From contig NC_090363.1 of NCBI RefSeq assembly GCF_035084215.1, positions 6,448,001 through 6,512,000 on the forward strand: a DNA stretch of 64,000 nucleotides. Direction: 5' to 3'. The notes beneath the pieces are model-generated. The model did no database searches, had not been told where the DNA came from, and was given only the letters and a program-made list of their open reading frames with translations. This document shows, piece after piece, positions 50,039-56,000 of the stretch. Made by a program: the position numbers and the translations under genes. This stretch comes from Heptranchias perlo. Lineage: Eukaryota. Numbering within the stretch: the first letter of the stretch is position 1; every line of letters starts with the position of its first letter.

Positions 50039-53000
50039 TTAATCAACACCGTCGATTTCTTTGCAATCTTCAAAAGATAAAATACGGCCAGAAGGCAATA
50101 ATATCTTACACTTGGCAGGATGCAACCTGTGATAGTGAGACTCGGTGACATTATTTTCTAGCAAGAAGGTAGAAAGTAAGCATGTTGTGTTTTATCAATT
50201 TCTTTACTGAATCATCATTGAAATTTTTAACAAAGTGTACATGCTTGAATGCCACAATCCGCTTTGACAGTGACATCTTTACAATCATCCCGCAACGCAC
50301 TTGGAGCATTAAGTAGTTTGCAGGCGTCTTGCGAAATTGCAGGATTTTATACTGTACTCTTCTGGCGCTATTCACACTGGACTCCTAATTGCAATCCCTT
50401 CCGAGTGCAGGTCCCATATTTTACGCGGTTCCCTTCTTCACTACTGCATATGTTTCACTTTTATTTTCTTTCTGTTTATTTTAAAATAATAAAACGTATT
50501 ATAAACTACACCATAGAAAGAAATGAAGAAAAATGTGTTAAAAATGAGACCATCAACGAATCTAACAAAACCGAATAAAACAGTACAGCTGGCAAAATTC
50601 TTACCAAACATTTGATATGAATACGCAGGAGCTTGGCAGTTAGTATAAATGATGGTTTCGCCTGTGTGCTGTGCTTAACGAAGTTGGTAACCTATTTATA
50701 ATTAATCGGTTCATGATTTCGTTACACATAACGCCCCATTCAAATCCTTAAAATGTTTGTATCTAATGTCTCTACCTGCTGCTGCAGGAAGGCAGCAGCC
50801 CTTGGCCTCCAATGGGTTAAAATCCCTGTTAAAGGAATTCCATACCAATGCTTTTAAGTGTTGGTATTAATAACAATGTGTAATTTCTGGACTTATAACT
50901 AGAAATATGGGCACGGTTTACAAATCTTTATTAAATGAAAGGAAAACAAACAGCCAACTATTAATGCACACATCAGAATCCATCCAGAGTAGCATGTGAC
51001 CTATTCCGGTCACCCAATCTCAGGAAAAAATACGATTGCCTTCATTGAATATTTTTAAGGCTGAGTTAGATAGATTCCTGATTAACAGGGGAGTCAAAGA
51101 TTATAGTAGGTGGAGAGGAAAGTTGAGGTCACAATCAGATCGGCCATGATCTTATCAACTGGCAGAGCAGGCTCGAGGGGCCGAATGGCCTACTCTTGAT
51201 TCACATGTTCGTATGAGAAAGATACAGAGGCAAACAAGAATAGTGGGGGGTGAAAATGGACGTGAACGGGGACGCAAACCAGGCAGTTTAGCATCGGTCC
51301 CCTGTTACACGCTCGCCCGGATATTCAGTTCCATTTGCTTCAATGGGTTGGGACATCAGGCCTGTCATATAACAGTTGGCAAATGTAATTCCGCCTGTTT
51401 TGCACCCCCACCCGTGTCCAATTTCACCCCTAAGATTCCTGAGATCACAAATTTCGTTTTTTAAAGGATAAAAGCTCCCCCATGCCTCAAGAAAGTTTGC
51501 CCATTGAGTGGACGAGTAACACAGAACAGGAAAGTCACACTTTGGTAGAGTTCAGCTCGGGTTGGGTGGAGATGGTTCAATGACACTGATTTAGGGAGGG
51601 AACATTTGCTCAGTTTCCCATTCCCATTGGCTCTCCAGTGACCATGTAATAGAAATGTGCGTGGGATTCTGCTGAACACAGGGTCTGCTTGCATAGGCTT
51701 CCTTCAGTGGCTAAATTGTTAAATTCACGGTAGCTGTTTACATGCACACAATGGCGACTTGGGTGAGTTACTGGAGGAGGGCCGTCACTCCTGGAGCTAT
51801 ACCCCAGTAAGAAGCGTCTTCAGGAAAAGGGAAGTAATTGAGGAACAAATTGAATAATAGGTTATCAGGGAACGTTATAGAATTTGGTCATGTTTATCTT
51901 AGGAGAGGTGGAAACTTCAAGAGAATCCAGACCAAATTTGCAAGATTACGAAGGGGATTGGTCATGTTATCCCTTTATGAGAGGTGGTCTCACACCTGAT
52001 TGCCCCACTCCACTTGTAATCTGATAGACACCTTGGTCCCCACGATCCACTGCTGTTATATCCACGGGTACCTCAAATCGTCTCCCATAGGTGAGACAGC
52101 AGTACTGTAAAGACACTGTTCAGTACGCTCCCAGAGAGAAAGTGGATTAAGGTATTCCATGTGAAGACGATTAGGTAGGATTTATCTCCCAAAAGGTGAC
52201 AGAAACTTGCTGAGCCTAATGGACTTTCCTTTTTCCAAAAATATTTATACTTCTATGATTTTAAAAGTGGCGTTTTTCACTTTGAAGCACATTTCGATTT
52301 TACCTGATGTGGGTTTGTGTCTAAATAATGAACCAGTGACAGAAAATGCATTCTATGTCTGAATGTGAGTTTACATACCACAACATTGAAATCAGACCCA
52401 TCTACCGAGCCAACCATATCTATAATATCTGAAAACAAAGAGAACATCATGATATGAACAATAGGGATTTGGCTGTGGGGATTTGTTACAAATTTAAAGA
52501 CTGCTCTAGAAACAATACTTGAAGAAATCAAAATTATGGCACGGGATAAAGACCAAAATTCTTTTGTTGAAACATAAACATTTAAATGTCTTTACTGTGT
52601 ATAATGTTTATAGTCACAGCATTACAGTCTGATTACACAGCGTATTCGGTCGTTAAGTGTAACGAAAATTAGAAGTATCTTATTTTTTTCAAACCAAAGG
52701 AGAGGATACAATAATAGAAATACATTCTAATCGTCTACGAGTTTTTTTTCCACATTAACTATCGCCGTAGAGTTTATGTTACTTATATTAGCAGAGTGGC
52801 CTTTATCGCCGTTTAATGCCAGGCTGACTAATGCATGTCGCGCAAATGAGTTATACATTGAATGGCGAATATAGACAACAGTAACTTGTATGCTAGAAAC
52901 TGCAGCAATTCTTACCGTCTGGGGAAATTTCGGCATAGCTTTCGTCATAACTGAACCACAAAAGAAGCAAGAAGCAAAATGGTACATGGTTAAAACAAGT

Positions 53001-56000
53001 GATACACGTCAGATAAAGTAAAGGAACGAAGAGGAATGTCACAGAGATGGCTACCTACCATTGCAACGGTTGACGGAAGTCTGTGGAAACACAATCAAAA
53101 AAACAAAAAAAAAATCATAGCTTTGTTGTATCTGAACACACATTTAGCAAAAACTGCATTTTAGCCATGTCTCAGTCAAAGATGGAGGTGAGGGTGTGAT
53201 TGAGCAGGTCAGCAGCTGCAGAAATGTCCTGGTGAATGGAGGGCCAGAGGGTGGACAGTTGGGAATTTGAACGTGGTGTTGTAAGTGATTAGGGGGGGAG
53301 AGTTTTTTTTTCCAGGGGCGAACACAGAGAATTCTAACAGTGCTTGTTGCTGATACTGTGGGCAATTTTAACCTAACTGGCCAGGTGGGAACCCCATGGG
53401 GTTGGGTGGAATGCTGGTTTTACACTCCGCCCGATATTACCCCCCATTGACTTCAAAAGCAGCATTGCCGTCCTCGACAGTCCCCCGACGGGCGGGTTAA
53501 GTTAAAATCGCCCCCGCTGACAAGAACACAATATCACATTAGCAATCAGCAAACTACTGAGGTTGTTCTCCAGTAATTCACACATGTACAACACTGAAGC
53601 CTGGCTGAGCCTTGTTAACTGGCAAAATTAAATGGTTCTTAAATAGGGGAGCTCACCGTCCTCATTAGGTTCATGATAGAGTTGCTCATTCCTTTGGGAC
53701 AGAAGATAAAACCGAGGTCAATGCGTAGTTAGAGAACAAACTATAGAGCAATTAGAATAAAAGAGGTGAAAATAAACTTTCATTCGATGATTAACCGACC
53801 TTTTTAATGTCGAAGTAACATCTGCAAAAGTAAAAGTTAACCATGAAATATTTTTAACATTAACGCAATCTGCCTAAAGACACTTTGACTTAAAGGAACT
53901 ATTTTCACTGGCGGATAGATCGGCAACTGGAGGACACAGATTTAAAATAATTTGAAAAAATACCTGAGGGGGAGATTTTTTTTAAAGCAGCGCACTGCCT
54001 GAAAGGGTGGTGGAAGCAGATTCCCGCCAGTTAGGATAAAATTAGCCCGAAGTTCTACACACCCGCATTTTCCGGCAATGGGGGCTGGAATCTAGGCAGA
54101 ATTTTGCCCTATTCTTAGCCCAGAGACTGTAACACCTAAGCTAATGATATCACATTATCGCCAGTCCGAGTATATTTTTTTTATTCGTTCATGGGATGTG
54201 AGCATCGCTGGCGAGGCCGGCATTTATTGCCCATCCCTAATTGCCCTTGAGAAGATGGTGGTGAGCCGCCTTCTTGAACCGCTGCAGTCCGTGTGGTGAC
54301 GGTTCTCCCACAGTGCTGTTAGGAAGGGAGTTCCAGGATTTTGACCCAGCGACGATGAAGGAACGGCGATATATTTCCAAGTTGGGATGCAACCATGTGA
54401 TCTTTCTGGTACGGATGACTCAGTAGAACACCGTGTACTCTCTAAACGAACTGATCTACAGAGGAGCAAGCTAAATGCTACCAATGTGCGTTACTCACTG
54501 GCTGCATTAATTTCATCATAGCCGGAAGCACCGCAACCCAACCAGGAGCTGGGAAAGAAAATAAACAATCATATAGTTCTGAAACAAAACCAGGTAATTT
54601 TTGAAAATAAATTGTTTCACTGTCATAACCACCAACCAACCTTTGCACTTGTGGGGCTACTTCTGTGGAGATAAAAGTCGAAAACAAAGGTTTATCCCAT
54701 TAATGCAAACAGAATCAGCACATTTGATACCGTGAAAATGTCATTTAAATTAGAAGTACATCTTATGCCCTTCCAGCAAAAATAATCAACAAAACTCCTG
54801 ATGTCCTTAAAAGAATGCTTAAAGGCCTATTTTAAAAATCGACCAGTTTAATAACGTGTAATACTCACCATTAAGATGAATGTTACTGCAAGGCGCAACA
54901 CTACTTTGGAGTCAAGACGGAAATGCTGTCACTGGTTTGATTATCAAAATACACATCAATCAATTAAAAAATAAAGAAATGAGTAGGTCCCACTTCAATG
55001 TTCGCTTACCTTTGTGATTGTGCAGGCACGGGGGCTGCTGAAAGACAAAAACGATGCAGAAAATGTTACAACTTTACCAGGTAGGTCAGAAAGCTTTCTG
55101 ATTTGGAGTTACAGCATCCCAAGTACAACTAGAGTGTTACCAGTATCGTTTAGATATAAAACGGATTCGATCCCTATATATATATATATCTGCAAATGCC
55201 TAGTGTTAAATTATTTAATATAATTGCATGTACATAAACAATAAGCAACTCACTGTATAGAAGGCAAACATGTCCTGTTAATGATGTTTACGGAGGGATT
55301 GTTCCTGATTCTGCTTTAACAGCGTGTATCAAACAAGTTCATTCAGCCATTGATAATGCGGAAAGGTAAATATCACACAAACCCGTTAAAGGTTCGTTTG
55401 CTAACGTCACCTGCACTCTTTCACAGCCTATCATTCAAACGTATTTATGGTGGTAAACCAATACATTTTGAACAAGTTACTCACCCGCTAAAGGGACAGC
55501 ATCATAAATTCGATCGTTCCTTCTAATTCACAAACAGAAAAAGCGCATTATCGAACAGTATAAATAGATAATATACATCAATTTATTTATTTATTTTAGT
55601 TTCACCAACCTCGGAAATTGTCGATCGCCAACTGTAGAAATAAAAATTAACAGTGAAAAATAAAATTTCAATAAAAACTAATCAAGTGTCACTGGCATTA
55701 GTTTGCATTTTTTAATGAATATATTTACTTTATGTATATATCCGGAAGGTGCACACAAGTGTTAAATATTGTGCTTTATAATCCTTACCTTGTTTCAGAC
55801 TGTACCATGCAGAGAGAAGGATGAAAACGCCGAAAGCTCCAGCACTGATGTACGTTATGTAGTATGGGGGTGATTCTCTAGGTTTCTCTGGGAGTCGGCC
55901 TAGATAGAAGAAAACAAGCGATTAGTTACCCCAGAAGTTCTCTGTCCCTCGCCCCATTGATGAGGAATATACACCGTGCCCTCTAATCAATATTTTCATT

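Follow-up and report, generated by a model that had tools for sequence, protein, structure and literature searches.

Gene C, found on the minus strand of a 64-kb stretch of Heptranchias perlo DNA (contig NC_090363.1; this whole stretch is termed here the window), possesses a tail built from five micro-exon 'doublets', and these very probably arose, as judged from their sequences, by tandem duplication of an exon pair. The window is, going by closest named proteins, a cluster of cartilaginous-fish NKp30-like genes, here genes A, B and C, with gene C best read as encoding a membrane protein of the shark NKp30/NCR3 family. Each doublet, D1 to D5, consists of an 'a' exon and then a 'b' exon, with phases running 1-2-1, with AG/GT ends, with internal introns of 87-109 nucleotides (nt), and with pair totals of 57-72 nt. 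An original prediction, made from the letters of the window, described four frame-neutral doublets of 57-60 nt. All four are present with the phases described, and the doublets are indeed frame-neutral, but a fifth, D3 (22+50 nt, YDEI), had been overlooked, which is what extends the range of lengths. The predicted register of tyrosines (Tyr), with one copy Tyr-free, is borne out as well: the b-exon codon that starts 22 nt before the donor encodes Tyr in D1, D3, D4 and D5, and is TGC, i.e., Cys, in D2.

The doublets are also what a splice-site scan returns. That scan covered both strands of the window and looked for a 19-28 nt exon, an 80-115 nt intron and a 32-50 nt exon, frame-neutral in combination, with training done without the gene C doublets (though with the gene A pair in the training set) and with the weakest gene C doublet setting the threshold. 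Seven rows resulted, which are the five gene C doublets, D2 once more with its other tandem acceptor, and the gene A pair, with no false positives.

Homology among the pairs is seen in both of their halves. With exons anchored at the donor and their last three bases excluded, a exons display 44% nucleotide identity versus 26% when shuffled (p=5e-5) and b exons 43% versus 25% (p=5e-5), with p=3e-4 for the b peptides; unrelated gene A exon ends, as a control, gave 21-26%. In leave-one-out profiling of b exons, D3b, D4b and D5b rank 5 of 12,345 sites, directly behind the training exons, and D1b ranks 41, while a exons rank 7 to 164 with their own profile. The internal introns, by contrast, agree in length only: no homology was found over 15 intron pairs, the smallest p values being 0.014 and 0.038, neither of which survives 15 tests. 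Aligning doublets along with introns thus upholds homology for the exons and not for the introns. As single exons are not frame-neutral whereas the pair is, only duplications of whole pairs preserve frame, and what was duplicated as a block would have been one pair of 22 nt plus approximately 35 nt around an intron of approximately 100 nt. That duplication appears to be old, given that alignment between the internal introns has been lost and that the same five pairs are found in Heterodontus; loss of intron homology would be expected were the duplications old. Origin by exon-pair duplication, as originally proposed, therefore holds up well, with exons mutually homologous, kept in an orthologue, and differing in copy number among gene-A-like proteins.

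The orthologue in question is a RefSeq NCR3-like gene of Heterodontus francisci (XP_067865360-69), whose variable (V) domain is 77% identical to that of gene C and for which there are nine isoform records. All nine of these display the five doublets, in order; comparison of doublet number between orthologues hence yields the same five pairs. Shared too are the leader, the V domain, an uncharged transmembrane segment, the 50-nt-type exon, and, in isoform X4, a YSTVKK end. The Heterodontus gene differs in having a Tyr-free D5 and in that most of its records end in another C-terminus, perhaps due to intron read-through. Retained as Tyr in both sharks are the sites of D1, D3, D4 and the last exon. 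The isoforms differ from one another at their C-terminal ends and, by a single residue, at two junctions, which are ones at which the window has tandem acceptors (D1b and D2). These records are automatic annotation, and short-read models can miss rare forms. As a separate observation, the transmembrane exon is skipped, in frame, in three of the nine, leaving leader, V domain and tail, which is predicted to be a secreted form.

The 3' end of gene C may be followed with transcript-like evidence, consisting of three runs (X1-X3) of one sample, presumed RNA, aligned to the window. Contig X1 record 1 is 253 nt long at a depth of 6.01, and its first 167 nt lie on 50305-50471 with 0 differences. X1 depth in the bins of the 50-nt exon and of D5b converts, at the depth of this contig, to 49.8-50.2 and 35.8-36.3 nt, respectively. 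As 167+50+36 = 253, the contig would, going by these bin depths, represent a spliced molecule of D5b, the 50-nt exon, and the last exon as starting at 50471. For the terminal exon (ETYAVVKK), the best match is the Heterodontus X4 C-terminus (ELYSTVKK; p=0.017 versus shuffles), and with this exon the gene C open reading frame (ORF) is 299 codons in length (~900 nt) and lacks an internal stop. The tail had been predicted to end instead with exons encoding IIYTN and SHYHRL. These join in frame on paper only, however, with the contig and Heterodontus X4 both using the ETYAVV-type exon. The two may at most belong to a minor splice path, and the SHYHRL segment possibly is 3' untranslated region (UTR).

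Contig X1 record 1 apparently ends one shared base upstream of D5b (52950-52951), also as inferred from depths. This end at the D5b acceptor may mark a fork, i.e., a retained intron or another upstream exon, or may be coincidence. No read or contig was found to join D1-D4 among the 15 of 24 joints and the 24 pieces listed, though absence of cover is not evidence. Read depth over the region falls nearly entirely on interspersed repeats (~51100-51200, 53200-53500, 54175-54390), with small, unexplained depths in bins 55546-55766 and 54883-55103 and, for X2 and X3, also in bins 50463-50683 (near IIYTN) and 52894-53114.

Table 1. Positions within the window of exons and genes discussed, with fractions giving identical residues relative to the Heterodontus orthologue.
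Feature	Position	Strand	Remarks
Gene C leader exon	60057..60099	-	ATG at 60099; 11/14; ORF open
Gene C Ig domain, VJ-type, single exon	56903..57238	-	85/112
Gene C stalk and transmembrane exon	55789..55899	-	111 nt, frame-neutral; hydrophobic stretch without charge; 19/37
D1a	55610..55631	-	22 nt, phase 1-2; weak donor score, 3.7; 2/8
D1b	55485..55522	-	38 nt, phase 2-1; IYDAV (orthologue IYDDI, 8/12); tandem acceptor TAG/AAG; D1 intron 87 nt
D2a	55010..55037	-	28 nt (25 via tandem acceptor CAG/CAG); 5/10
D2b	54869..54903 (or 54900)	-	35 or 32 nt; D2 intron 106 or 109 nt; Cys in Tyr position, likewise in orthologue, 6/11
D3a	54641..54662	-	22 nt; recovered by splice-site scan; 5/8
D3b	54499..54548	-	50 nt; GYDEI; D3 intron 92 nt; 8/16, YDEIN identical
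D4a	53800..53821	-	22 nt; 3/8
D4b	53657..53691	-	35 nt; LYHEP (orthologue IYHDI, 6/11); D4 intron 108 nt
D5a	53059..53080	-	22 nt; 5/8
D5b	52916..52950	-	35 nt; YDESYAEI; D5 intron 108 nt; 3/11, both Tyr missing in orthologue
50-nt exon	52379..52428	-	phase 1-0; 11/17; bin depth equals 50 nt of contig X1 record 1
Terminal exon	50305..50471	-	coding 50471-50421 (ETYAVV motif, stop), then 3' UTR
IIYTN candidate exon (unsupported)	50605..50668	-	weak acceptor by eye; match to Heterodontus X1 end p=0.57 versus shuffles
SHYHRL candidate exon (unsupported)	50039..50157	-	downstream of supported stop; poly(A)-like signals, 50043 and 49966
Gene A		+	three V exons, uncharged transmembrane exon, long tail
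Gene A micro-doublet	10812-10830 + 10931-10968	+	19+38 nt, intron 100 nt; no Tyr in register
Gene A YDEL exon (HDYEYDEL)	22388-22422	+	35 nt, phase 2-1; homologous to gene C b exons
Gene B		-	single V; Arg in transmembrane segment (YIVRG)

The supported gene C tail is 140 residues long and contains six Tyr, with no YxN, no YxxM and one YxxP (YHEP). Motifs were scored as immunoreceptor tyrosine-based inhibitory motifs (ITIMs) using [SIVL]xYxx[IVL] and as switch motifs (ITSMs) using TxYxx[IV]. There is one formal ITIM match, SGYDEI, in which the residue at -2 is Ser in Heterodontus also (SNYDEI). The sites that are conserved, YDAV/YDDI, YDEI and YHEP/YHDI, resemble the YDDV of ADAP. The preference of the Src family is for pYEEI-like sites. 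Proteins captured in pull-downs with ADAP YDDV include SLP-76, Nck and CRK (PMC2908683). Human NKp30 requires a transmembrane Arg for CD3zeta/FcRgamma (PMC6514059), and gene C is without that Arg, so its signaling should rest on its tail. With a five-pair tail and an uncharged transmembrane segment, gene C thus likely signals through its own tail tyrosines rather than via an adaptor chain carrying immunoreceptor tyrosine-based activation motifs (ITAMs). SH2 docking at these tyrosines is plausible.

As a mechanism, ligand binding would be followed by phosphorylation, by a Src-family kinase, of the Y-[D/H]-x-[I/V/P] sites of D1, D3 and D4, with these phosphorylated sites then recruiting SH2 proteins of the Nck/SLP-76 type, as does ADAP YDDV. 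Damping would fall to the terminal E-x-Y-[A/S]-x-V-K-K motif, via a phosphatase or a partner of similar effect. The outcome would be a mixed co-signaling receptor, nearer to CD6 than to LAT, and one whose pairs are constitutively spliced. A bolder possibility, and one that should be taken as speculation with the odds well against it, is that the phase 1-2-1 pair is a reusable unit of shark NCR3 tails, with five copies for gene C and between one and three for gene-A-like genes, that made of an NKp30-type ectodomain a CD6-like hub with Nck/SLP-76-type sites. How many sites a given cell type has would then depend on skipping, whether of whole pairs or staggered, and the fork-like contig end at D5b would be a first trace of this. 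Staggered skipping, i.e., of the b exon of one pair plus the a exon of the next, is likewise frame-neutral.

Gene A bears on the question of how general the unit is. Its 19+38 doublet (10812-10968), originally said to open its tail, is confirmed. The 19-nt exon is 44% identical to gene C a exons (p=0.008) and is the second non-training match of the a profile. The 38-nt exon is only 27% identical to gene C b exons in register (p=0.44), matching them solely when shifted post hoc by 3 nt (37%, p=0.019). The YDEL exon of gene A is instead the top non-training match of the 12,345 sites, with 51% mean identity to the b exons and 20/29 identity to D3b. It is preceded by a 98-nt exon and a 1996-nt intron, however, and therefore is not part of a micro-doublet. 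The claimed alignment of the Tyr of EHDYEYDEL with those of gene C consequently survives as exon homology but not as membership in a doublet. Gene A, that is, holds both halves of the unit, though apart.

Copy number of the gene A-type unit is variable. In one gene-A-like protein of Heterodontus, 19-residue units stand three in a row (10/19, 10/19 and 6/19 identical), all Tyr-free, which match in length the 19+38 nt pair as read from protein rather than from DNA. Single units are found in gene A of the window, in Carcharodon, Cetorhinus and Scyliorhinus proteins, and in a second Heterodontus protein. The idea of a tyrosine cassette held in common with gene A is weakened by this, as neither the gene A micro-doublet nor the triplicate copies have a Tyr in register. 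Skipping of units was seen in none of the five isoform records of the triplicated protein, all of which keep all three. Along with an absence of whole-doublet skipping from the nine Heterodontus records of the gene C orthologue, this leaves the original suggestion of tuning by doublet skipping without an example among RefSeq isoforms (0/9 and 0/5).

Elsewhere in the gene A tail, which was mapped up to 24558, are YIPM (YxxM, a PI3K-type motif), IQYASL (a canonical ITIM) and YDEL, at 16009-16052, 20294-20391 and 22388-22422 (+), respectively. All three are conserved in proteins of Carcharodon, Cetorhinus, Scyliorhinus, Heterodontus and Mobula, which is wider evidence of conservation than there is for gene C, and the YDEL/YEEL exon keeps its Tyr in all of these. 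Over 10812-24558 (+) a triplet occurs three times, in which a phase 2-1 exon of 35-38 nt sits between one that ends in phase 2 and a 41-nt one of phase 1-0; the gene C end, with its 35 nt and then 50 nt phase 1-0, resembles that triplet. The exon at 18462-18499 (+) has a GC donor (CAG/gcaagt), is in frame, and matches the SLKTF segment of orthologues.

It is conceivable, if on the unlikely side, that the doublets are a drifting spacer, with their duplication tolerated because frame is kept, with internal Tyr mostly relics and with gene C an inhibitory receptor acting via its last motif, perhaps along with SGYDEI. Many related receptors indeed have short tails with ITIM-like motifs only. A number of observations count in that direction, or against the reading preferred here. 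Tail Tyr conservation is 4/6, and this is not clearly above a tail identity of 70/136 (51%, versus 76% for the V domain), so the figures show no selection on the Tyr. D2 is Cys in both species and Heterodontus D5 is Tyr-free, and the gene-A-like tail of Heterodontus, with its three units all devoid of Tyr, implies that pairs can multiply without docking sites. D2b in leave-one-out profiling ranks merely 940 of 12,345. Gene C-type tails were found by a tail-only search in Heterodontus clusters only (2 of 120 candidates), with one orthologous tail in all, and no further ones were seen among the best 150 of 539 matches (145 new proteins, of which 42 were inspected after a transmembrane-plus-tail filter). 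A Scyliorhinus canicula model (XP_038671257.1) ends just past the transmembrane segment, with doublets unannotated, and transcript-like support in Heptranchias perlo is limited to D5b and later exons. The last motif of gene C, moreover, fits neither the canonical ITIM nor the ITSM pattern, and no ITSM occurs in the tail. Against a spacer, on the other hand, are the three internal Tyr motifs, which in both sharks keep an acidic residue or His at +1 and a hydrophobic residue or Pro at +3, and the homologous YDEL exon of gene A, which is retained from sharks to ray.

The original proposal, in which YxN and ITIM-like exons complete a LAT-like scaffold that is tuned via whole-doublet skipping, fares worse and now seems very doubtful. 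To its credit, the IIYTN exon has a strong donor and the SHYHRL exon a strong acceptor, the two join in frame, the pairs are frame-neutral, the depth of X2 and X3 in bin 50463-50683 is unexplained, and X1 record 1 has its putative fork one base before D5b. The contig and Heterodontus X4 nevertheless take the 50471-type last exon, so that none of the six Tyr of the supported tail is in a YxN and the cited Grb2-type and ITIM-like motifs sit in unsupported exons; none of the nine and five isoform records skips a unit; and gene C has a full V domain, whereas a LAT-type adaptor has a minimal ectodomain, that of LAT not being known to bind ligand. Since GRB2 and GADS bind YxN (PMC5440646), the comparison with LAT fails. 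That the doublets resemble spliced exons by chance only, or belong to the tail of a pseudogene in decay, is the least credible of these alternatives, exceedingly so. D1-D4 go unjoined in the contigs listed and the D1a donor is weak, but the ~900-nt ORF without internal stop, the cleanness of the scan, and a colinear RefSeq orthologue whose isoforms vary by one residue at the very two junctions that in the window have tandem acceptors have largely refuted it. Duplicated exon pairs, kept between two sharks and plausibly carrying docking sites, are the reading that is retained here.

Known systems resemble gene C in part. Both CD6 and ADAP are functional analogies for which no homology has been shown. 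CD6 has a long tail with separate SH2 sites, upon which a LAT-independent signalosome is assembled with positive as well as negative partners (PMC7608068, PMC5440646), and with ADAP it is YDDV that resembles YDAV/YDDI/YDEI. LAT likewise has a multi-tyrosine tail, but one with YxN sites, while the gene C tail has none and comes with an Ig ectodomain. The three ITAMs of CD3zeta derive from repeated exon pairs. Tails of CEACAM1-related receptors consist of small exons with conserved phases (PMC2110893). In both of these cases, ITAMs or ITIMs are what is repeated or split; the gene C unit instead is approximately 19 residues with a single Tyr. No description of the gene C tail was found in the literature as searched by titles and abstract openings, with the main shark NCR3 paper and its supplements outside that search; nor does a gene C-type gene appear in the available part of PMC11599192, which covers the CD28 family.

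Family placement rests upon the V domain, which in gene C is one 336-nt exon, non-rearranging and VJ-type, with the G-x-G-T strand present. Its top four of 15 PDB matches are human NKp30 (E 4e-12 to 9e-12), in agreement with the NKp30-type receptor originally proposed, and for gene A all four PDB matches are. Human NKp30 (NCR3) thus is the closest solved structure by sequence and also has a single VJ-type domain, but it employs its transmembrane Arg with CD3zeta/FcRgamma, whereas gene C is uncharged there and has six tail Tyr. NKp30 tail isoforms arise by splicing (PMC6514059). The Arg of activating NKp30 that gene C lacks is present in gene B. In a V-domain tree, built without a human row and without an outgroup family, gene C joins the Heterodontus NCR3-like protein at 98/83, with Scyliorhinus added at 100/96, and the nurse shark NCR3 clade joins these at only 90/62. 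Nurse shark NCR3 (QTT61898.1) also has an uncharged transmembrane segment, plus one tail Tyr, but belongs to that neighboring V clade and has a short tail. The Scyliorhinus canicula model XP_038671257.1 seems to be a fusion of two adjacent NCR3-like genes, with its second half the gene C orthologue. Shark NCR3 is reportedly a multigene, divergent family (Kinlein et al. 2021), for which PMC12227049 cites a series of accessions. Linkage to the major histocompatibility complex (MHC) is a feature of the NCR3/NKp30 family, and no MHC gene was noticed among the ORFs listed for the window.

Genes A (3297-6461, +) and B (39527-39901, with 37646-37830, -) resemble a paired inhibitory/activating set, A having the ITIM and B, whose tail is very short, the Arg in its transmembrane segment. 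The gene B V is 88% identical to the first V of gene A, and the four V exons of these genes group together at 100/100, which suggests recent duplication or gene conversion. A V-like segment (~46316-46665, +) lies between genes B and C, broken by stops and a frameshift and probably a pseudogene fragment. The intron after the third V exon of gene A contains a tandem array of ~42-nt units at 6860-7240 (+).

NKp30 is a rare natural killer (NK) receptor in being traceable to sharks. In the cluster described here, gene B is the activating, Arg-type gene, gene A combines an almost identical V (88%) with ITIM and YxxM motifs, and gene C has the pair-grown tail. As tyrosine tails spread over several exons are familiar, and paired receptors likewise, this should be of moderate surprise to the specialist. 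Gene C, though, represents a clear and indeed countable example of the in-frame growth of a signaling tail.

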